DNA of 36,348 nucleotides, taken from IMG/VR virus record IMGVR_UViG_3300009551_000036, positions 1 through 36,348 of that record. The stretch is one strand, 5' to 3'. Position 1 is the first letter of the stretch. Each line of letters begins with the position of its first letter. This stretch comes from a virus. This document shows positions 2,988 to 31,489 of the stretch, in pieces. Both the position numbers and the translations under genes were made by a program. The notes below the pieces were generated by a model. The model was not told the origin of the DNA. It worked only from the letters and a program-made list of their open reading frames with translations, and did no database searches.

Positions 2988-5213
2988 TCACGGCGAGACT
3001 GCTACCGCCTCCCTTTTCATGGATTCAAAATCAACGGGAATCTGTTCCATCTCAGTGAGCCAACTTTCGGCAACTTTCTCCCAAGAAAGCGACTGAGGCT
3101 TAAAGCTCTGAAACGCTTCCCGTTCCCATCGTTTTTCACGTAAAGCTTGAAGGGTCGCGTTTGTAAAATTGCGAAACTCATCGCTTGTGACGCAATCGTG
3201 ATTGAGAAGCGTTGCCATGCCTGACTTTTCGGCTAGAGCCAAGGTGTCCTTAAGTCCACCCAAACGTCGGGTCACTGGATAGACTCCTGAGGCAATCATT
3301 TCCATTGCCGTAATGCAGCTCGTTTCGATGAAATCGCAGGGATGAAGCCAAATGACGGCTTCTTTAAAATGCCTGATCAGCTCATTCTGCTCCGTTTTGC
3401 CGTGGTATTTGACCCAGGGTCTGGAAGCAAACATCCCTTTCAATTTGTCATGGAGCGCCTGATGCCCCCACTGAGGGAGATGTTCGATGCCGTAAAAGAC
3501 ATGGAGCTCAAGATCAGGGAATTCTTTCCTGACCTCATCACAGACCAAAATAGCTCGATCGAGTCCGCGATCAGGACTAGAGGGAAATACGATCTTATTT
3601 GGGTTTTTAGCGGGCTTAGGCCCCAGGAACCTGTCGGGGTGAATTCCGTTTCTTGAAATCCAGATTTTGTCATAAGGAACGAGTTGCATGTTATGCATGA
3701 AATCCGCGTGAAACGGAGTCAGACAAATCGCCTTCACATAATTGGAAGTCTCCTCAATGCCAGGGGTGATTAAATCATGGCACCAAGCATAAGTGGGAGC
3801 ATCGGTCAGTTTCACGTTGTGGCGCCAAGAGATATGCAGATAGGGCTTATATTGAGAGAAGTAATGCTGAATCTGAGCCACAGGTAAGTACTCCACCCCG
3901 CGGATCGTTTTAATGTCAGCTCTCGCATTGAAGACTTTGACTTTTCTGCCTGAGAGTTTGGCCAGGTGTTCTGCCATTTCAATACAAGCGGTCTCAGACC
4001 CCCCCATTCCTTGCTTTCGGTACTCTTCTCCATCCCAGACATAAGGAGAGGTCGGAGTGCCTGAGAAGACAATCTCGCGAGTGGGCTTGGCCGCTTTCCT
4101 TCCACACATCAATGTGCTCATCTTCGTCAATTCATCTAAGATCTGCTTGGTCTCAGGATGCTTGTATTCGCCATGACACCGAAAGGCCACTTCCTTAGCC
4201 TCATCGATTTTCCCGAGATTGGCATAGATCCTAGCCAGCTGATTTTTGGGATAAACGCCATACGCATCATCATGAAAGAAAATAGGAGAGACGACTTGAT
4301 TGCCCGCCGGCAAATAGCATTTGCATGCGGCTTGATAAAACGGAACGGCATTCAAAAACTGGTTCATTTTCAGATAACAATCGCCCACGGCCACATAAAG
4401 CTCAGCTCGCTGAGGTGCGAGTTGAATAGCAGTCAGTGCAATTGAAATGGCTTTGTCATACTGACCAAACTCCATGTAAGAGAGAGTCAAATACTGCATG
4501 GCCAAAATCCGGTCATGCATCTCCATTTCTTCTCCACTTGAGGTGACCTCTTCTAGCTTCCGGATCGCATCAAAGCGTTTGCCTGCTTCAAAGAGTTCTT
4601 TGCCCCAATAGTATTTCATCCGGGCATCCAGTTTCGATTGATTCTTCTCAAGGAGACTGAGATTTCTGCTTCGGTCTTTGGCAAGGTCCATCTCGGTTCT
4701 CATATGCCTCACTCGCCAAGAGGGAATGAAATTGACCTTGGTATCAGGACCAGGAACAATGCCTTCATGAACGAAGTATTTCCATTTCAGGTTCTTTGAT
4801 CGCTTCGTCACTCTTTCTCTGACAAAAGTACAAGCCGGAGTCCCATCAGGTTTTGAGGCGTAGACATAATTGGCTAACCAGAAATCAGCCAGATGCATGA
4901 TATCGTTTCGCCAAGATAGAAACTCGTCTCTGCCTTCTAAGATATCATCTCCGTCCATCCAGAAGATATAATCGGTCTTTAAAGGCTCATAGCTGACATT
5001 TCTGGCAGCTGCAAAATCATTGCACCAAGTGAACTCATAGACCTCAGCTCCGAGTTTAGCTGCGATTTCCTTGGTATCATCGGTTGATCCGGTATCGGTA
5101 ATACAAATTTGGTCAAAACATCCTTGAATCGATTCAAAAACGCGTGGCAGATTTTCAGCCTCGTTTTTGACAATCATAGCAAGTCCAAGAGTGGGTCTAA
5201 GGTGTTGAGTCAT
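2988..5213 (-). CDS. Three-part glycosyltransferase: N-terminal GT2-like domain, central TPR repeats, C-terminal GT4/GT1-like domain (741 aa)
   Basis: N-terminus LAMIVKNEAENLPRVFESI..ICITDTGSTDDT...WMDGDDIL gives GT-A nucleotide-binding and DxD-type motifs. The middle has repeated helical-hairpin motifs (YYWGKELFEAGKRFDAIRKL; GQYDKAISIALTAIQLAP; LYVAVGDCYLKMNQF; LARIYANLGKIDEAKE). The C-terminus has GMGGSETACIEMAEHL typical of GT-B enzymes. Confidence 0.7.
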   Translation of the reverse strand: MTQHLRPTLGLAMIVKNEAENLPRVFESIQGCFDQICITDTGSTDDTKEIAAKLGAEVYEFTWCNDFAAARNVSYEPLKTDYIFWMDGDDILEGRDEFLSWRNDIMHLADFWLANYVYASKPDGTPACTFVRERVTKRSKNLKWKYFVHEGIVPGPDTKVNFIPSWRVRHMRTEMDLAKDRSRNLSLLEKNQSKLDARMKYYWGKELFEAGKRFDAIRKLEEVTSSGEEMEMHDRILAMQYLTLSYMEFGQYDKAISIALTAIQLAPQRAELYVAVGDCYLKMNQFLNAVPFYQAACKCYLPAGNQVVSPIFFHDDAYGVYPKNQLARIYANLGKIDEAKEVAFRCHGEYKHPETKQILDELTKMSTLMCGRKAAKPTREIVFSGTPTSPYVWDGEEYRKQGMGGSETACIEMAEHLAKLSGRKVKVFNARADIKTIRGVEYLPVAQIQHYFSQYKPYLHISWRHNVKLTDAPTYAWCHDLITPGIEETSNYVKAICLTPFHADFMHNMQLVPYDKIWISRNGIHPDRFLGPKPAKNPNKIVFPSSPDRGLDRAILVCDEVRKEFPDLELHVFYGIEHLPQWGHQALHDKLKGMFASRPWVKYHGKTEQNELIRHFKEAVIWLHPCDFIETSCITAMEMIASGVYPVTRRLGGLKDTLALAEKSGMATLLNHDCVTSDEFRNFTNATLQALREKRWEREAFQSFKPQSLSWEKVAESWLTEMEQIPVDFESMKREAVAVSP

Positions 5214-12611: not shown

Positions 12612-15155
12612 TCATCGTCTCCTTGGGGGTAATCCCACCGGTCGCGGCGGCGACCCTCGTCCCTGCTTAGGCGGTCCTACGGGCGCAGGGCCCGGAGCTG
12701 GTGCTCCAGCTCCAAACTGTGCTTTTTTGGCCGCCATTCGGTCGTTGGCACCTGGGGGTAATCCGGCAATGGCTTCTCCACCTGCTCCAATGGGCGGTGG
12801 AGGCATTGGGGGAAGCGGAGGCATCGGAGTATTGGAAGGGCCTGGAGGCATGAGCTGATTGAGCCTGTCTTCCATCTGAGCTTCAAAAAGACGCCTAATT
12901 TCCTCAGGCAGCATTCCCCATTTATCGGATTTTCTGAATCGATTGAGCTCTTGGCACCAAAGGATGTTGTTATCCTTCTTATCGATCTCGACGAATTCGC
13001 CTTTTTCCAATGCGTCCATGCCTCGTTTGATTTGAGCCATGTCGATGTGTTGGTCTTCAAAGATTTCCTGACTCTGTCCAAATTCCAAAGCATCCAAGAT
13101 CTTCATTGCAACCGATGGATCGGATTTGGGGTCACCGAGAAGTCCCAGACTCATGGTATTGACGATGTCCTGGCGCTTGAGAGTCTTTGAATCAGGGAGA
13201 GTGGATCCTCTCACGACTCTCACATCCGTATTGCCTCTCAAAAGCCTGCCATCGAGTTCCCGGATAATGTATTCGCCTGATTTGCCGGCAAGTTTCATTT
13301 TGCGGGGCATTTCGTAATTCTTCTCCACCTGTTTTAGGATCTGACGAAACACTTTGGACCAAGATCGCTCTAAGAGTTCAGTGATGACGCTTAATCGAGT
13401 CTGATCTTGCTCCTGGAGAAGCTGAGCGCCAATAGCGGGTATAGAAGCAGAAGGCAGAATGCCGCGAGAAACGTCGCCGATCCCAAAAATATAATCCATA
13501 ATTTTGTCGAGACGCTCTTCTTCAGTGTAAGCGTATTCTGGGATGGTGGGGACGGGTAAGGGTTCGATGTTTTGAGGGGCTGAGGGCACGACATTGTAAT
13601 AAAGCACTTCTCCTGATTCATCATTCATGGCCTCTTGGGCAAGGCCGGAACCTCTCGGGGCTTTGTATTTGCCCGCAAGCATTCGTCTTGTCCATTCAGC
13701 CCTTCGTCTTAAAGTTTCATTATATTGATCCTGAATCGGTCTTGCATGAGTGACCGGAGTCTCACTGTAATATTTGCCGCCTATGATGGTATCATCAAAT
13801 TTGGTGAGCGGGATTTCTCCGATAGGCAAATCTTTGCTATCTAAGAACACACCATTCGCTGCAGCAATCATCCGTCCTTGAGGAAATTTGGCTGAAGGCT
13901 TTTCATACTTAATCATTTCAATCGCAGAATTTTTCATCTGCTCAGTCAACCCCCCTTGCGAAGGGCCGCGAGAATTGAGCGAATTGACCCGCATTTCATA
14001 CTGAGCAGAAAGAAGCCACGCTGCTTCTTCTTTCACTAAATGTCCTCGTTCTGGATAATTGGCCTGAAAGTAATGAAGCGGTCTGACTTTAGCCAGCATC
14101 AAATATTGAGCATCATCATCGGTTCTAGCAAAAGGATCTGGAAAGACCGAAAACGCCGATTCAACTTCAATATCGACATCTCCTTGATAACCCAACGTCC
14201 CATCTTCCAGGATCATCGGATCGCCTAGTAATGGGTTCCATTTCACATGAATATAGGAATGCCCACATTGCTGCATCCACATGTAAAGAAACAGGCGCTT
14301 CTTATTGACTTCCAATCTTTCGATTTGAGTGTTTAAGACCTGCATCGAAAGTTTCGCTGCATCCTTATCCTCAACATCATCTGTTTCTGGAACAATGTCG
14401 TATTCGGGTGGATTCTGACAAAGACGCGCTAATCGATTTTGAACCGTAGGTAAGATCTTATTGGCATGAATGCGGTTTCGTCTCAAGTAGGCACTGGCGC
14501 GATTGATGGGCTGAAACTGGCGCGCAGTCGTATTATACATCAGGCCGTCGTAGCCTAGGCAGTTATGGACTAAGATCCCATTGGCGAAATATTCATGGAT
14601 TGTCTCAATGGTTAGGTCAAAGACATGTTGTGGACCTACACATAAGCGCTTCACAAAACAAACGTCTTCATTCTTTTCTGAGATGACATGCATCCCGACT
14701 TGCAGATTTTGGGCTTGGACCCAGCCATAAGCTTTGGTGTAAATCTTATGCTCATCGGTGCATTTCAGAATCGATCCATCTGAGAAATAATGGTCATAAC
14801 AGGTCTTTGTGCCATTATCCCAGACTCGAAGAACACGCCGATACCCATCGCGTGTTTTAACAAGATCTTTCGTTGTGAGTTTCTCGATTGCGGTATAGCC
14901 ATTGGCCGTCGCAATGACTGAATCGCCTGAGACGCAATAGGCGCAGTTCGTCATCCAGATTCCCTCATGTGCAATTCGATTCGCACTCGAGCGATTGGAT
15001 TCCAGCTCAGCTCTTAATTTCTGAGCCATGTCGATTTCTTCAGAGGATTGATCACTGACGCTTTTGGGCTTTTTATTGCGATCTGGGTCCGTCTGCGACG
15101 ACTGGGCCGCAAAGGGCTGATTCCCCCCAAATAATGATTTCAATAAACCCGCCAT
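12612..15155 (-). CDS. Portal protein precursor (847 aa) containing a mini-intein and a Pro-rich basic C-terminal tail
   Basis: Largest head-module ORF, downstream of the terminase pieces. RBS AAGGA. The mature protein would be about 722 aa after intein removal. The portal assignment rests on size and position. Confidence 0.65.
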   Translation of the reverse strand: MAGLLKSLFGGNQPFAAQSSQTDPDRNKKPKSVSDQSSEEIDMAQKLRAELESNRSSANRIAHEGIWMTNCAYCVSGDSVIATANGYTAIEKLTTKDLVKTRDGYRRVLRVWDNGTKTCYDHYFSDGSILKCTDEHKIYTKAYGWVQAQNLQVGMHVISEKNEDVCFVKRLCVGPQHVFDLTIETIHEYFANGILVHNCLGYDGLMYNTTARQFQPINRASAYLRRNRIHANKILPTVQNRLARLCQNPPEYDIVPETDDVEDKDAAKLSMQVLNTQIERLEVNKKRLFLYMWMQQCGHSYIHVKWNPLLGDPMILEDGTLGYQGDVDIEVESAFSVFPDPFARTDDDAQYLMLAKVRPLHYFQANYPERGHLVKEEAAWLLSAQYEMRVNSLNSRGPSQGGLTEQMKNSAIEMIKYEKPSAKFPQGRMIAAANGVFLDSKDLPIGEIPLTKFDDTIIGGKYYSETPVTHARPIQDQYNETLRRRAEWTRRMLAGKYKAPRGSGLAQEAMNDESGEVLYYNVVPSAPQNIEPLPVPTIPEYAYTEEERLDKIMDYIFGIGDVSRGILPSASIPAIGAQLLQEQDQTRLSVITELLERSWSKVFRQILKQVEKNYEMPRKMKLAGKSGEYIIRELDGRLLRGNTDVRVVRGSTLPDSKTLKRQDIVNTMSLGLLGDPKSDPSVAMKILDALEFGQSQEIFEDQHIDMAQIKRGMDALEKGEFVEIDKKDNNILWCQELNRFRKSDKWGMLPEEIRRLFEAQMEDRLNQLMPPGPSNTPMPPLPPMPPPPIGAGGEAIAGLPPGANDRMAAKKAQFGAGAPAPGPAPVGPPKQGRGSPPRPVGLPPRRR
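14562..14936 (-). mobile_element. Mini-intein (125 aa, residues 74-198 of the portal ORF, +1 Cys at residue 199), no endonuclease domain
   Basis: Block A CVSGDSVIATANG. Block B ILKCTDEHKIY (TxxH). Block F VFDLTIETIHEYFANG. Block G ILVHN followed by C. Codons checked on the sequence: tgc at 14936-14934, aac at 14564-14562, tgc at 14561-14559. Confidence 0.8.
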
Positions 15156-27408: not shown

Positions 27409-27446
27409 ACAAATATCTCGTTGCTTTAAAGTATTGTGTGGTAGGC

Positions 27447-27707
27447 ATGAATCGTGTAATGGGTAACCGCATGTCGAGAAGCATTAGAAGTTACATTCCG
27501 GACGAAGATTATACTGATTTCATTGCATGTAAGATTTCGCCTCGTTTGAAAGAACGGGTGGATGCGATTGCTAGGCGAAACAAATGGACGACCTCAGCTG
27601 TCATCCGGGCAGGCCTTCAGAAATTCGTCGATGATGAGGATAGTGAATACCGGGCTCCCGAAAAATACCGGATGCCTAGACAAATGGATTTCTTAGCGGA
27701 GAAGTAA
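27447..27707 (+). CDS. Ribbon-helix-helix (CopG/Arc-like) regulator candidate (86 aa from ATG 27447)
   Basis: IACKISPRLKERVDAIARRNKWTTSAVIRAGLQKFV fits a beta-strand/helix/helix RHH pattern. First gene of the plus-strand operon. Confidence 0.45.
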   Translation: MNRVMGNRMSRSIRSYIPDEDYTDFIACKISPRLKERVDAIARRNKWTTSAVIRAGLQKFVDDEDSEYRAPEKYRMPRQMDFLAEK

Positions 27708-27709
27708 TT

Positions 27710-28486
27710 TTGAGTGAACCTGTCGTTTCCGTCATTCTGACTCATCAGCTAGAAGAAAATCTACCTTATCTGCAATTAGCCTTAGATAGCGTTCTTCTAA
27801 GTCAGGGAATTGAATTTGAGGTCTTTTTAGTTTCAGGACAAAAGGACAAGCCTCCTGCAATTGAGCATCAATCCAAAAATCTTCAGATCATTTGGGACCC
27901 ACAACTGGATATAGCAACAAAGAAAATAAACTATGCCCTATCCAAAATCTCCACACATTCCACGCATCTGATGCTGCTATCGGATGATGTGATCTTATCC
28001 TGGAATTCCCTCTCTCGGATGTACAATGCATTCTTAGGTCGAGAACTCATCATAGGTCCGATGAGTAATTCAGATTTCAATTCAAGATACGAAGCATCGA
28101 TTGAATTGCAATTTCCAAAAATATACCTCCGTCCCGATATGTCGCTTCAAGATTTGAAGCTCAACCACCTGGATGACTTACTCAACGTCAAACTTTTCGA
28201 TGATTCCTTAGGCAGGCTTCTCATCCCATTCCCGTGGATTTCATTTTATTGTGTCATGATGCCCAAATCCGTCTGGCAAAAAGTGGGTGGACTCGATGAG
28301 AAATTAGAATACCGCTACAACGACCAAGATTTTTGTACTCGGGCTCAGCAACTTGGAATTCCAACGGTTGTGAATTTCGCAGCTTTTGCGTTTCATTTCG
28401 GATCAAGAACGATGAAGCATTTAAAGACTCCTCAGATTGACCAGGCGGCGACAGAGCATTTTATGAAGAAGTGGAGTTTGAGATGA
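27710..28486 (+). CDS. GT2-family glycosyltransferase (258 aa, TTG start)
   Basis: VSVILTHQLEENLPYLQLALDSV (GT-A N-terminus). LMLLSDDVIL (DxD-like). Late motif GGLDEKLEYRYNDQDFCTRAQQLG. Confidence 0.6.
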   Translation: MSEPVVSVILTHQLEENLPYLQLALDSVLLSQGIEFEVFLVSGQKDKPPAIEHQSKNLQIIWDPQLDIATKKINYALSKISTHSTHLMLLSDDVILSWNSLSRMYNAFLGRELIIGPMSNSDFNSRYEASIELQFPKIYLRPDMSLQDLKLNHLDDLLNVKLFDDSLGRLLIPFPWISFYCVMMPKSVWQKVGGLDEKLEYRYNDQDFCTRAQQLGIPTVVNFAAFAFHFGSRTMKHLKTPQIDQAATEHFMKKWSLR

Positions 28487-28764
28487 ATAATTTTAAAAAC
28501 ATTAAGCCGCATCTTGAAGCGATCACAAAGATTTTATCGGAAGTGAATCGTGAAGAATTAGAATCATTACGACAAGCTGGTTTTTCAATTCGATCCTGGA
28601 ATCAGCTTATCAATTATATTAGACAGCTTGGTAAAGGTATAGGTCATCCTGTGCCCAAGAATACAATTTCGAATGTTGCTTATGATTTAGATAGGGCATT
28701 ACAGGGAGAAAATGCTCCGCCTTATTTTCAGGCTCCAAATCTTAAAAAATGGCATAAAAACTAA
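28483..28764 (+). CDS. Hypothetical protein (93 aa from ATG 28483)
   Basis: The ATG overlaps the GT2 stop (ATGA). Confidence 0.45.
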   Translation: MNNFKNIKPHLEAITKILSEVNREELESLRQAGFSIRSWNQLINYIRQLGKGIGHPVPKNTISNVAYDLDRALQGENAPPYFQAPNLKKWHKN

Positions 28765-28805
28765 TCAATAGCTAGTGGAGTTCTTCGAGATGAGAGGATG
28801 GGAAT

Positions 28806-29093
28806 ATGGATAAACCCTATGTAATAGTTAGGACTTTTTCGGCAGGAGTATTTGCGGGATTTCTTGAAAAACGAGATGGAAAAGAGGTCACGCTCACTAA
28901 TGCTAGACGGCTATGGTACTGGAAGGGTGCTGCAAGTCTCAGTCAATTGGCAATGGAAGGCGTGAAATATCCGAAAGAATGCAAATTCCCCTGCCCAGTC
29001 GATTCCGTCGTTTTGACGGAGGCCATTGAAATTTTAAATGTAACCAACGAAGCCAAAGCATCGATCGAAAGTGTACCGATATGGAAAGCATAA
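28806..29093 (+). CDS. Conserved small phage protein of unknown function (95 aa)
   Basis: VIVRTFSAGVFAGFLEKRDGKEVTLTNARRLWYWKGAASLSQLAMEG...VLTEAIEILNVTNEA...W resembles a widespread phage DUF (pattern ..tL.nAR.iwyW.ga..L..lA..G). Recollection, not verified. Confidence 0.55.
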   Translation: MDKPYVIVRTFSAGVFAGFLEKRDGKEVTLTNARRLWYWKGAASLSQLAMEGVKYPKECKFPCPVDSVVLTEAIEILNVTNEAKASIESVPIWKA

Positions 29094-29395
29094 TGGTTTC
29101 GTTTAGCGGCTGCGGTTACGGCTTCGGCGACGGTTCCGGCTATGACTCCTGTGACGGCTCAGGTGACGGCTCCGGCTACGGCTACGGCTACGGATCAGGC
29201 TACGGCTCCGGCGACGGCTACGGCGACGGCTACGGCGACGGCTACGGCTACGGCGAAGGCGACGGCTACGGCTACGGCTACGGCGAAGGCGACGGCTATG
29301 GCTCCGGCAACGGCTATGGAGACGGCTATGGAGACGGCTATGGCTATGGCAACGGCTATGGAGACGGCTATGGAGACGGCTACGGATCAGGCTAA
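29093..29395 (+). CDS. Gly-Tyr-Asp repeat protein (100 aa)
   Basis: TAATG coupling to the upstream gene. MVSFSGCGYGFGDGSGYDSCDGSGDGSGYGYGYGSGYGSGDGYGDGYGDGYGYGEGDGYGYGYGEGDGYGSGNGYGDGYGDGYGYGNGYGDGYGDGYGSG*. This is the only one of the three open frames with a start context. Confidence 0.55.
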   Translation: MVSFSGCGYGFGDGSGYDSCDGSGDGSGYGYGYGSGYGSGDGYGDGYGDGYGYGEGDGYGYGYGEGDGYGSGNGYGDGYGDGYGYGNGYGDGYGDGYGSG

Positions 29396-29515
29396 GACAT
29401 ATTTGAGGGGAATATGGAAAGCAGAATCGACTCCAGCGAAGGTTACGGCTCTGGCTATGGCGATGGATCAGGATACGGCTACGGATCAGGCTACGGCTCC
29501 GGCGACGGCAAGGGC
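29100..29515. repeat. Imperfect tandem hexanucleotide array (GGCTAC/GGCGAC/GGCTAT units) in two blocks
   Basis: Visible runs ggctacggctacggc..., gacggctatggagacggctatgg.... All three forward frames and one reverse frame stay open. Confidence 0.85.
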
Positions 29516-29518
29516 TAA
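29414..29518 (+). CDS. Second, short Gly-Tyr-Ser/Asp repeat peptide (34 aa)
   Basis: RBS GAGGGG then ATG. MESRIDSSEGYGSGYGDGSGYGYGSGYGSGDGKG*. Confidence 0.4.
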   Translation: MESRIDSSEGYGSGYGDGSGYGYGSGYGSGDGKG

Positions 29519-29529
29519 AGGGGATTCTT

Positions 29530-30543
29530 ATGGGGGAGAAAATCATTGCGCACTGCTCGAATATCACCGCGTTCGATGTTGGAAAAACTGCTTGGAATAA
29601 TCCAGAAATCTGGCAACAATACCCCGGGTCGGGATGGATATCGTATCTCGATCAATATGCGAAGCGAGAGGGCTTCCAGCTGCTATCAGGCCTGGAAGCC
29701 TTAGTTGAGATTAAGAATAAGCGCATCGATCCTTCCGACGTCTATATTGTTCAAGAGGAAGAAAATCAGATCGGCCTCAGGCTCTACATGGCTCAAGCGA
29801 AGAGGGCAGTTCTTTACTGTCTCGAATCCCCTCTTTTTGTCCCAATCTTCTATGACATACTCAATTTGGTTCGGGGAGAATTTCCGTTTCAGATGCTGTT
29901 TGGTGAATTAGGCAATATCCGGGCTTACTTTCCAAGTTATGACGAGGAGAAGGATCTTCAGGCACCTATGCCCTGGGAAGAACGAAAGGGTTTGTCAGTG
30001 ATGGTGAGCTCCAATAAGCATTATAGGAGCATGCTTCAGAACAACGATCGCCTGGGATTATCTGAGACATGGGATTATGCCTTAAGTCATCAGCTCCATG
30101 ATTTGAGATTTCAGATGATCCGGCATTTTAGGGATGAGAAAAAGGTCATGGATCTTTACGGCAGGGGATGGGCTGATGCGCCTGAAATCCCTGCAGGACA
30201 AAAGATTGAGGTTTTGAGGAATTATAAATACTGCTTTTGCATCGAGAATGTCCAAATGCCAGGTTATGTGACTGAAAAGATCATCGATGCTTTAGTCGCC
30301 GGCTGCGTTCCGATTTATGTGGGAGCGCCTGATATTAATACCTATTTGGATGATCGAGTGATGGTTCCCATTGATCCGCTTCTGAACGACCGTTTAGATC
30401 CTAATCAAGATCCTCTCTCCTTTTGTCAGGATCTGGATAGAAGCCAAAAATATTTAGGCGAGTGCGGAGGATTTAGGAAATTCAGCTATCAATCCTTTGC
30501 GCGTACCGTGCTAGATTCTGTGATCAAAGTGATGCAATCATAG
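29530..30543 (+). CDS. GT10-family fucosyltransferase (alpha-1,3/4-FucT-like, 337 aa)
   Basis: NYKYCFCIENVQMPGYVTEKIIDALVAGCVPIYVGAP closely matches the GT10 signature (H. pylori FucT: CFENTQGYGYVTEKIIDAYFSHTIPIYWG). Confidence 0.8.
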   Translation: MGEKIIAHCSNITAFDVGKTAWNNPEIWQQYPGSGWISYLDQYAKREGFQLLSGLEALVEIKNKRIDPSDVYIVQEEENQIGLRLYMAQAKRAVLYCLESPLFVPIFYDILNLVRGEFPFQMLFGELGNIRAYFPSYDEEKDLQAPMPWEERKGLSVMVSSNKHYRSMLQNNDRLGLSETWDYALSHQLHDLRFQMIRHFRDEKKVMDLYGRGWADAPEIPAGQKIEVLRNYKYCFCIENVQMPGYVTEKIIDALVAGCVPIYVGAPDINTYLDDRVMVPIDPLLNDRLDPNQDPLSFCQDLDRSQKYLGECGGFRKFSYQSFARTVLDSVIKVMQS

Positions 30544-30556
30544 GCATGGGGGAGTC

Positions 30557-31489
30557 ATGGAAAAAGACGCCAGAATCTTTGTCGCAGGGAGTACCGGATT
30601 AGTCGGTCGCGCTTTAGTCAGAAAACTAAAAGGCCAAGGCTACAGCTCAATTATCACCCGAAGCCGAGAAGGCTTAAATCTATTAGATCCCAGGGCCGTG
30701 GATGACTTTTTCTGTCGGCATTATATCGATTACGTCTTTATGGCCGCAGGCAAAGTAGGCGGCATCATGGCTAATTCCATGAGCCCCGCAGACTTTCTTT
30801 ATGAAAATGCCATGATGGCTTGCAATGTTATTTACACGGCAGATAAATATAATGTCAAAAAGCTTCTTTATCTCGGATCCTCCTGCATTTATCCTAGAGA
30901 TTGCAAACAACCGATTGAAGAGAATGACTTACTCTCAGGTCCCTTAGAGAAGACGAACGAAGGCTATGCGATTGCAAAGATTGCGGGATTAAAACTGTGT
31001 GAAGCGTATGCGAAACAAAAAGGACGTCGCTTTATTTCTTGTATGCCTTGCAATCTGTACGGTCCTCATGACAATTTTGATCTGGCTACTTCACATGTTA
31101 TCCCTGCATTAATCCATCGATTTCATATCGCAAAAAAGACCAAACAGGATTCAGTGACTCTTTGGGGAACTGGACAAGCCAAACGGGAATTCCTTCATGT
31201 CGATGACGCAGCTGAAGGCATGATTCTTCTCATGGATCACTATGAGGGACTTCAGACGGTCAATTTAGGCTCAGGACGAGAGGAAAGCATTGGATCACTC
31301 GCTTTTAAAGTGAAAGAGGCTACCGGGTATTCAGGGGGCATCGACTATGATCGATCCAAGCCTGATGGCACGCCCAGAAAGATTATGACCTCAGATAAGA
31401 TGAGAAGCTTGGGGTTTCAACCTAAGATCAGTCTTCAAGAGGGACTGAATCAGACTTATCGATGGGCAATTGAGAATGAGGCTATTTAG
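30557..31489 (+). CDS. fcl: GDP-L-fucose synthase (GDP-4-keto-6-deoxymannose 3,5-epimerase/4-reductase)
   Basis: Collinear with E. coli Fcl: IFVAGSTGLVG..LNLLD.RAV.DFF....IDYVF.AA.KVGGI.AN...PADF.Y.N.M......I..A....V.KLL.LGSSCIYP....QP..E..LL.G.LE.TNE.YAIAKIAG.KLCE.Y......R.....P.NLYGPHDNF....SHVIPAL..RFH...WG.G...REFLHVDD.A...SKPDGTPRK. Confidence 0.9.
   Translation: MEKDARIFVAGSTGLVGRALVRKLKGQGYSSIITRSREGLNLLDPRAVDDFFCRHYIDYVFMAAGKVGGIMANSMSPADFLYENAMMACNVIYTADKYNVKKLLYLGSSCIYPRDCKQPIEENDLLSGPLEKTNEGYAIAKIAGLKLCEAYAKQKGRRFISCMPCNLYGPHDNFDLATSHVIPALIHRFHIAKKTKQDSVTLWGTGQAKREFLHVDDAAEGMILLMDHYEGLQTVNLGSGREESIGSLAFKVKEATGYSGGIDYDRSKPDGTPRKIMTSDKMRSLGFQPKISLQEGLNQTYRWAIENEAI

Follow-up and report, generated by a model that had tools for sequence, protein, structure and literature searches.

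The 36,348-nucleotide viral sequence analysed here (IMG/VR record IMGVR_UViG_3300009551_000036, positions 1 to 36,348; hereafter the window) carries a small module in which a gene for a 95-aa protein of the Pfam family DUF6948 is directly followed by genes for repetitive proteins, called Gly-X proteins below, that are made almost entirely of glycine alternating with Tyr, Asp or Ser. We show that genes of these two kinds form a reciprocal, translationally coupled pair, that the repeat is selected at the level of the protein and turns over rapidly in frame, and that the two products have been fused recurrently. The module is real, widespread in phages and essentially undescribed, and its evolutionary behaviour is unusual: of its two components, one ranks among the most conserved small phage proteins and the other among the least conserved. 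It is very common, with thousands of protein clusters and a range from Proteobacteria to bacteria of the Candidate Phyla Radiation (CPR), yet it is nameless and often mis-annotated.

A literature search found no paper on DUF6948 or on repeat peptides of this kind. The sole prior mention found is in Comeau et al. 2012 (PMC3391216), where a '(KMGCCG)35' repeat at 46,046-46,255 of phage phiPLPE is described as GC-rich non-coding DNA and, speculatively, as an attachment site. This is the same feature as the Gly-X tract. The published repeat falls inside a Gly-X open reading frame (ORF) that is unannotated in the public record (EU876853, 46,045-46,290; L003) and lies directly after the DUF6948 gene gp84; in our analysis it is a translated, selected frame linked to the upstream gene.

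The repeat genes of the window

In the window, the DUF6948 gene occupies positions 28806..29093 of the plus strand. It overlaps the first repeat gene, GX1 (29081..29395, plus strand, 104 aa), by 13 nt (ATGGAAAGCATAA, 29081..29093, plus strand), which hold both the GX1 start and the C-terminus of the DUF6948 protein, I-W-K-A-stop. GX1 consists of the leader MESIMVSFS and a (Gly-X)n tract; an alternative start, the ATG at 29093 within TAATG, gives a product of 100 aa. The second copy, GX2 (29414..29518, plus strand, 34 aa), has the leader MESRIDSSE followed by (Gly-X)12 ending in Gly and a net charge of -3, and is preceded, 3 nt before its start codon, by a Shine-Dalgarno-like GAGGGG (29405..29410, plus strand). 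The two repeat ORFs of 100 and 34 aa reported in an initial annotation of this DNA were recovered when the ORFs were re-derived from the sequence.

After the 9-residue leader, both proteins are purely Gly-X repeats in which X is Tyr more often than Asp and Asp more often than Ser. In GX1, Gly is found at 46 of 48 in-register positions and at none out of register, the in-register X residues are Y21, D12 and S8, and the overall composition is G46, Y21, D13, S11. GxG motifs number 44 in the best open segment of the window, against a mean of 2.8 and a maximum of 5 in 100 shuffles. The description of the products as acidic and Tyr-rich holds both for GX1, with a net charge of -16, and for its relatives. 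Across 99 Gly-X ORFs (median length 86 aa, range 34-195), the core composition is G 45.5%, S 16.6%, Y 12.0%, D 10.6%, F 2.7% and about 1% Ala; Lys, Arg and aliphatic residues are scarce, and the median net charge is -0.11 per residue. With such a composition the Gly-X product almost certainly lacks a folded core and is probably disordered.

At the DNA level the tract is a hexanucleotide tandem array, (GGC-NNY)n, for which Tandem Repeats Finder gives 46.5 copies of period 6 at 29107..29385 of the plus strand; exact 30-nt duplications lie inside it at 29238/29268 and 29306/29348. Codons ending in C (GGC, GAC, TAC) are far commoner in GX1 than in the other genes of the phage: GGC makes up 80% of its Gly codons versus 31% elsewhere, and GAC all 13 of its Asp codons versus 25% in the rest of the genome. 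This codon use accounts for a local GC peak (0.53 versus about 0.45). GGC is likewise dominant in most of the relatives' repeat genes, irrespective of the genome.

Reciprocal linkage of DUF6948 and Gly-X genes

The 95-aa protein matches the full DUF6948 profile (PF22253) over residues 4-87 with 113.6 bits (E = 4.6e-33; the Pfam gathering score is 27 bits) and is a clear member of the family. The initial annotation had assigned it to a widespread, uncharacterised phage family, and this is what we find: DUF6948 has 6246 clusters at 90% identity and 2443 representatives at 50% identity. Proteins of 55-76% identity occur in metagenome-assembled genomes assigned to Acidobacteria, Proteobacteria, Clostridia, Treponema, Planctomycetes, Verrucomicrobia, Cyanobacteria, Chlamydiae and CPR phyla.

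A tblastn search of GenBank phages with this protein gave 17 records. In eight of nine loci inspected, among them those of Iodobacter phage phiPLPE, Vibrio phage IKEMa6-1, Ralstonia phage NK-7, Chlorobiaceae phage CV-1-33 and Pectobacterium phage Taid, a Gly-X ORF lies at or overlaps the DUF6948 stop codon, and in the ninth the repeat is immediately upstream of DUF6948. When 80 IMG/VR loci were added to those from GenBank, the Gly-X ORF was found to start within 20 nt of the DUF6948 stop in 78 of 90 viral loci; in GTDB genomes the arrangement is seen at 65 of 77 loci, with five more cut off by the contig end. Altogether, the search from DUF6948 gave 167 loci, and in 143 of them a Gly-X ORF lies at the stop codon.

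The reverse search used a degenerate DNA pattern encoding GYGDGYGDG and returned at least 120 viral loci. With the first hidden Markov model (HMM), DUF6948 was recognised directly upstream in 62 of these, and most of the others have, in the equivalent overlapping position, proteins of 90-110 aa with a matching motif layout. An iterated profile converged on 104 pattern loci, in 99 of which the match is in the expected place, upstream on the same strand; 13 of the 16 loci that it missed have almost no upstream sequence. Among the matches listed, a gene of the DUF6948 superfamily is thus directly upstream in 99 of 107 testable loci. Profile comparison with hhalign connects the divergent upstream proteins to the family, subfamily B2 matching canonical DUF6948 with 94% probability (E = 9e-8) and B1 matching B2 with 97% probability (E = 5e-10), and one divergent subfamily also exceeds the Pfam threshold for DUF6948. 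The association of the 95-aa family with Gly/Tyr/Ser/Asp repeat ORFs, put forward in the initial annotation, is therefore borne out by database search in both directions.

The repeat gene may be present in more than one copy; the window has two, and arrays of 2-6 Gly-X genes are found in other phages (L012, L045, L047, L052, L061, L064). In published genomes the gene has been left unannotated, placed in the wrong frame or called non-coding DNA. In Chlorobiaceae phage CV-1-33 it is annotated in a wrong frame (gene25, AMAMAL...; L006), and in MW202478 (L009, coding sequence 1505-2077) it is out of frame and merged with the DUF6948 gene. An apparent 'GTGPG' class of repeats after the stop codon (L023, L026, L027, L041, L046) was discarded, as by codon arithmetic it is probably the +1 frame of Gly-X genes that use GGG.

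A selected start codon and a selected protein

Because a repeat of this kind has almost no stop codons in any of its three forward frames, the openness of the Gly-X frame proves nothing by itself. One line of evidence for translation is the start codon. Counted from the end of the DUF6948 stop codon, an ATG is found at -12 (29081 in the window) in 122 of 167 loci. The A of this ATG is the last base of the codon that precedes a conserved Trp, which is an Ile codon in the window, and its TG comes from the TGG of the Trp. At this synonymous third position, on which the ATG depends, A is found in 137 of 156 loci, versus 24% at other Val/Ile codons of the same genes (P about 3e-64); GTA is used 72 times versus 11 for the other Val codons, and ATA 40 times versus one ATT. 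This codon choice shows that selection maintains the ATG at -12 through a synonymous base. The initial annotation had proposed coupling of the two genes through TAATG. Such a TAATG is indeed present at 29093, but the conserved start is the overlapping ATG 12 nt upstream.

Several further observations point to the protein. The dominant Gly codon differs by lineage (GGC in 68 ORFs, GGT in 23, GGG in 5 and GGA in 3), and Ser is drawn from both the TCN and AGY boxes. Non-repetitive variants at several loci retain the G/Y/D/S/C/N composition, and in many proteins the tract reads in-frame into folded domains. The selected start, the turnover of Gly and Ser codons, the degenerate variants and the in-frame read-through together show selection on the protein encoded in the Gly-X frame.

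Fusion of DUF6948 into the Gly-X frame by programmed -1 frameshifting was considered and rejected, a canonical heptamer being present in only 5 of 122 loci; in 36 loci the Gly-X frame is open for just 12 nt upstream of its ATG. The window does contain a slippery heptamer in the DUF6948 frame, T_TTA_AAT at 29033-29039, with the Gly-X frame open from 29030, and a -1 shift there would join DUF6948 residues 1-77 to the repeat; the heptamer is not conserved in relatives and is probably there by chance.

Turnover of the tract

Eight sibling phages of Pectobacterium and Dickeya have a near-identical leader, MSKLIKPE(K/R)YG, in which the Arg is peculiar to Dickeya phage Setonix. The tracts of the eight are 53-89 aa long and differ in the order of X residues. 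Over the upstream 976 nt, in ungapped comparison with Taid, six of the seven other phages are 90-96% identical and Setonix is 59% identical. Among gut (Bacteroides-associated) proteins that share, identically or nearly so, both a 14-residue leader and a 149-aa C-terminal domain, the tracts range from about 12 to about 95 residues, their lengths always differing by whole dipeptides. Part of the length diversity seen in metagenomes may be an artefact of short-read assembly, to which the isolate phages of Pectobacterium and Dickeya are less exposed. The initial annotation suggested that the copy number may vary, and among close relatives it does. These comparisons of sequences show that selection keeps the frame, the Gly register and the composition of the tract, and that its order and length turn over fast.

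The leader motif and the composition of the tract follow the subfamily of the partner. In the canonical type the leaders are ME[SKN][LIV] or ...RIKxFL... and the tracts contain Ser; in the B2 type the leaders are ...LTLDG and the tracts have Y 22%, D 17% and S 3%; in the B1 type the leaders are ...P[VI]G and the tracts have Y 19%, D 12.5% and N 8%. Some B2-type Gly-X proteins (among L177-L296) have, in addition, an N-terminal domain of about 60 aa with the motif G-[AS]-C-x-x-G-x-x-x-F, e.g. VVDVLDTGACIDGVLAFV.

The NNY codons at X resemble the outcome of adenine mutagenesis of AAY, as in a diversity-generating retroelement (DGR), but neither a reverse transcriptase nor a template repeat was found, and this mechanism was set aside. 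No RVT domain is present in the window ORFs scanned, and the variation consists of gain, loss and reshuffling of units without template copying.

The repeat also interrupts assemblies. An independent Logan assembly of the same phage (L298, SRR6056499) ends within it at about 29212, which shows an assembly ambiguity and does not prove heterogeneity. About 13 IMG/VR contigs (e.g., L010, L016, L026, L039, L065) end within the repeat or just past it. With so many assemblies terminating there, the repeat is a recurrent breakpoint in short-read assembly of phages, and it bears on judgements of phage genome completeness as well as on gene calling.

A predicted Sm-like fold for DUF6948

The invariant residues in the family alignment include R9, G14, G18, R34, R35, W37, W39, G52 and W93. 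An AlphaFold2 (AF2) model, built from a 40-sequence alignment with a mean predicted local distance difference test score (pLDDT) of 96.3 and a predicted template modelling score (pTM) of 0.86, has five strands (residues 5-10, 15-24, 27-35, 65-70 and 73-78) and two helices. Foldseek comparison of this model with PDB gave 895 matches, of which the best 50 are all archaeal SmAP, eukaryotic Sm/LSm or Sm-like proteins, with target-normalised TM scores of 0.6-0.7 and E-values of about 2e-3 to 1e-2. In BFVD, DUF6948 proteins rank first and weak Sm-like phage proteins come next. At the level of structure prediction, then, the 95-aa protein is an Sm/LSm-like beta-barrel.

A sequence-profile search of PDB with the DUF6948 profile gave nothing, and the distant homolog in L009 has a weak match to DUF2642 (E = 0.12). 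PADLOC models match neither DUF6948 nor the Gly-X protein, and the sole PHROG match is phrog_18306, a family of no known function. With PADLOC, PHROG and NCBIfam all negative, the module is outside every described system, and its nearest analogies are structural and not homologous.

Fusions, and tracts on other domains

In a minority of cases the two components are in one polypeptide. The tract follows the Sm-like domain in P0241, P0257, P0283, P0284, P0285 and in L183, a viral locus where both are in a single ORF; it precedes the domain in P0282, P0286, P0334 and P0340. In P0301 and P0346 a confirmed TIGR02996 domain stands before the tract and the Sm-like domain, and P0288 and P0291 have the same layout with an N-terminal region that has no TIGR02996 match; TIGR02996 is a 'repeat-companion' domain typical of Planctomycetes and Myxococcota. 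P0312 has another N-terminal domain, then the tract and an Sm-like domain that scores 18.8 bits with DUF6948, below the threshold. The fusions scanned against Pfam (P0241, P0284, P0286, P0288, P0301, P0346) score 66-102 bits with DUF6948. These gene models show the tract fused in-frame to either end of the Sm-like domain, in several independent architectures.

Tracts are found on other domains, too. DUF7666 proteins (PF24703; P0289, P0294, P0315, P0342) carry a C-terminal Gly-X tract of like composition, which makes at least one further uncharacterised domain to which the tract has been added. A leader, a hypervariable Gly-X tract and a conserved 150-aa domain are combined in a family of about 1900 clusters (L002, L008, L158, L174-L176; P0121-P0240), most of which come from human-gut metagenomes; one member is labelled Bacteroides uniformis. 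The 150-aa domain has the motifs FAHGET and WHxxLTGSC, and its AF2 model has a pLDDT of 91.8. It has no match in Pfam, PHROG, NCBIfam or PADLOC, and its best E-value in a structural search of PDB is 0.38; with neither a family match nor a structural neighbour in PDB, it was dropped as a guide to the function of the tract. The N-terminal motif of the B2-type proteins resembles the LTGSCxxGRxxF of this gut-phage domain, and the two may share a small domain.

Possible function of the module

In the mechanism that we propose, the two kinds of gene would act together as one conserved phage module. The first would supply a small, unusually conserved barrel protein of predicted Sm-like fold, and the next gene or genes a short conserved leader joined to a strongly acidic (Gly-X)n tract rich in Tyr, Asp and Ser. 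Both products would be made together, because the Gly-X ATG overlaps the end of the first gene, and the 6-nt units would expand, contract and reshuffle quickly under selection for frame, register and composition. We tentatively favour, as quite possible if short of probable, the view that the Gly-X protein is a detachable low-complexity tail of the Sm-like protein, putatively bound to it so that the two act as one particle. Contacts might be made by the subfamily-specific leader, by the Tyr and Asp of the tract, or by both, with the invariant Arg-Arg-x-Trp-x-Trp patch of the barrel.

Several known proteins have this general design. In eukaryotic SmD1, SmD3, SmB and LSm4, C-terminal Arg-Gly repeats mediate recognition of partners and have no part in folding. 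The phage module is similar in combining a small Sm-type barrel, as judged from the predicted structure, with a Gly-X dipeptide tail. It differs in that its tail is usually a separate, coupled gene product and is acidic and aromatic (Tyr, Asp, Ser) instead of basic; unlike those of eukaryotic Sm/LSm proteins, moreover, the phage tail is hypervariable in length, Sm1 and Sm2 motifs were not found in the barrel protein, and the phage proteins are known here from sequence and predicted fold. In E. coli Hfq, the acidic tip of the C-terminal domain mimics nucleic acid and an Arg patch lies on the rim, and Acinetobacter Hfq has a Gly-rich C-terminal domain of GGFGGQ repeats. Here again an Sm-like core with an Arg patch (Arg-Arg-x-Trp-x-Trp in the phage protein) goes with an acidic or Gly-rich repetitive tail, but there is no sequence homology to Hfq, the phage tail has a gene of its own, and its repeat is a strict dipeptide with Tyr. 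E. coli SSB (a Gly-rich linker and DDDIPF tip), T7 gp2.5 and T4 gp32 have acidic tails that mimic single-stranded DNA and recruit partners. Like them, the module has a small beta-barrel and a Gly-rich, acidic, aromatic tail, and it is found among recombination and replication genes; the predicted fold is, however, Sm-like and not OB, and a long regular repeat takes the place of the short conserved tip.

The functional analogy with Hfq, where a core is combined with a tail that can compete with nucleic acid, lies behind the mechanism favoured here, and the acidic tails of Hfq, SSB and T7 gp2.5 suggest a possible function for the tail. More speculatively, and at best as an outside chance, the polyanionic aromatic tail may mimic single-stranded nucleic acid or serve as a multivalent 'sticker'. 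It would then gate what the barrel, which is probably oligomeric, can bind, or else recruit or sequester nucleic-acid-binding proteins in the early phase of DNA replication and recombination. A broad version of this idea, which we regard as similarly doubtful, is a 'split Sm protein' in phages of very many phyla, in which an oligomeric barrel and a hypervariable polyanion, mimicking nucleic acid or forming condensates, would shield or organise the DNA and RNA metabolism of the phage independently of the host. If so, slippage of the repeat would tune the tail length in the population, and the module would be the first example of a widespread phage system based on an intrinsically disordered protein selected for composition.

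Several points weigh against a dedicated Sm-like protein and tail. The Sm-like assignment comes from a predicted structure with marginal Foldseek E-values, none of which is at or below 1e-3; and, as there is no LSM match in Pfam and no Sm1 or Sm2 motif (a Pfam scan at E <= 0.01 gives DUF6948 only), it holds at the level of fold. The co-variation of leader and tract composition with subfamily could reflect shared ancestry and not co-adaptation. Fusions are a small minority of the DUF6948 family. The occurrence of the tract on unrelated domains, i.e., DUF7666 and the 150-aa domain, means that it could be a generic linker or tail and not a specific ligand of the Sm-like protein.

The rival accounts are best considered together with the genomic surroundings. 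In annotated phages the module is at the start of the early region or inside it, near genes for Erf, SSB, RecE/Bet, exonuclease, HNH and XerD-like proteins; elsewhere it is an isolated cassette between genes of opposite orientation. Among 150 flanking ORFs of related loci, AAA_24, DNA methylases, RusA, PD-(D/E)XK, HNH, DnaB, ERF, YqaJ, ParB, integrase and Gp157 are found once or twice each. The only conserved neighbour of the Gly-X gene is the predicted Sm-like protein, and the other flanking genes vary.

This early or moron-like position, in which the module is often the first gene of the early operon or an isolated cassette, would suit an account in which the two proteins are merely co-expressed and have separate jobs, the Sm-like protein as an RNA chaperone or a sponge for nucleotide signals and the Gly-X protein as a decoy, an anti-defence factor or an inhibitor of a host machine. 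Phages commonly encode small oligomeric sponges, and tracts without a fused Sm domain exist on DUF7666. Linkage at 86-93% in the two directions, an overlapping start that is under selection and the repeated independent fusions are, however, hard to explain in this way, and there are no PADLOC matches and no informative PHROG matches to go with it; we consider separate jobs unlikely.

Rather less can be said for a heterotypic condensate or scaffold in which a prion-like tract, with Tyr as stickers and Gly and Ser as spacers, would be cross-linked by an oligomeric Sm-like ring and organise phage DNA metabolism. Conservation of composition and length alone, the arrays of several Gly-X genes, the tethering of further domains by tracts and the invariance of Arg and Trp in the partner would all be accommodated, and a self-contained, host-independent system would account for the extreme conservation across host phyla. 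The idea is nevertheless drawn from composition, the high net negative charge disfavours homotypic condensation, and GX2 of the window has just 34 aa. We rate such a condensate as a long shot, and its corollary, that the domains fused to tracts are clients, as no better.

An RNA-level role is improbable. Sm-like proteins bind short repeated RNA motifs, Hfq binding repeated ARN motifs, and the (GGY-NNY)n transcript could in principle be the ligand of the Sm-like protein, for autoregulation or as an RNA sponge, with translation being secondary. Third positions are indeed strongly biased to pyrimidines, Gly being encoded by GGC or GGT in 86% of cases and X by NNY in nearly all, and the repeat RNA has less structure than shuffled versions of it (z = +2.55), and so would be accessible. 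Yet the third position of Gly codons and the Ser codon box vary by lineage with the amino acids kept, the non-repetitive variants retain the amino-acid composition, the tract is read in-frame into folded domains, the start codon is selected, and Rfam has no match for the repeat RNA. A ligand role of the RNA could still be an extra layer on top of the protein function. A structured RNA was rejected on the lack of an Rfam match and on the repeat folding worse than shuffles.

The initial annotation had placed the repeat genes between glycosyltransferase (GT) genes and offered their products as possible substrates of the neighbouring GT and Fcl genes. The first half of this is partly right: downstream is a GT10-like gene (29530-30543, plus strand, 37 bits), but the 258-aa ORF upstream has only sub-threshold GT matches. 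Glycosylation or fucosylation of Tyr or Ser by the products of the GT10, GDP-fucose-synthase-like and GT2-like genes nearby could draw on this neighbourhood, which includes an epimerase/GDP-fucose-synthase-like gene (30557-31489, plus strand), and on the many Ser and Tyr hydroxyls of the tract. There is, however, no GT among the 25 most frequent Pfam families of the 150 flanking ORFs, so that the GT10/epimerase neighbourhood is particular to the window and the substrate idea has no support from synteny; the neighbours in nine annotated phages are recombinases, nucleases and regulators, and the GT genes of the window look like an ordinary O-antigen-modifying cassette of the lysogenic-conversion type. 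Modification by these enzymes is accordingly a very improbable role. As for precursors of ribosomally synthesized and post-translationally modified peptides (RiPPs), a leader and a repeat are present, but no recognised RiPP-modifying enzyme is among the flanking families listed.

Finally, a non-coding role of the DNA as an attachment site, as suggested for phiPLPE (PMC3391216), or as an origin or recombination hotspot, which the near absence of stop codons in all three forward frames leaves formally compatible with the open frame, is largely refuted by the selected start codon, the conserved leader peptide, synonymous codon turnover with amino acids conserved, in-frame fusions on both sides of the tract and, as modest evidence given their mosaic flanks, intact repeats between phage-like genes in prophages on the large contigs L104, L111 and L152. 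The same coding evidence and the three large chromosomal contigs led us to reject the repeat as an attP site.

The Gly-X homolog of Ralstonia phage NK-7 is named 'fibroin heavy chain-like protein' in GenBank. As in the silk fibroin heavy chain (GAGAGS/GAGAGY), Gly alternates with X, and Tyr and Ser are among the X residues. Unlike in fibroin, to which there is no homology, X is dominated by bulky Tyr and charged Asp and not by Ala, which is about 1%, and the proteins are short (34-195 aa), intracellular and acidic. The family matches only low-complexity noise (TrAA12, Serglycin, ser_rich), always below cut-offs, and is not a silk fibroin; by its composition it is unlikely to form beta-sheet crystallites.

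Whatever the function, the tract, in which selection acts on composition and register only, would be a tractable natural example of an intrinsically disordered phage protein that is functional. As the module is present in cultured phages (the Pectobacterium Ymer genus, Iodobacter phiPLPE, Ralstonia NK-7 and Vibrio IKEMa6-1), knockouts and biochemistry are feasible.

Other features of the window

At about 36.3 kb, the window has the appearance of a complete podophage-like genome, and an ENA metagenome contig (36,366 nt) is identical to it. Family profile scans of its ORFs identify a P22/SU10-type portal, an SU10 adaptor, a terminase and an ERF recombinase. The module is part of a plus-strand block, 27438-31489, with minus-strand genes on both flanks. 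The block starts with a CopG/Arc-like ORF, followed by the 258-aa ORF with weak GT similarity and by a 97-aa ORF without matches, all on the plus strand; then come the DUF6948 gene, GX1, GX2, the GT10-like gene and the epimerase-like gene.

The 847-aa portal protein (P22_portal/SU10_portal; 12612-15155, minus strand) has a PT-HINT/intein-splicing match at residues 81-198, and the portal gene probably holds an intein. A 741-aa protein encoded within the structural-gene block (2988-5213, minus strand) combines GT2, TPR repeats and GT1, and constitutes a second glycosyltransferase locus, apart from the GT10/epimerase cassette.

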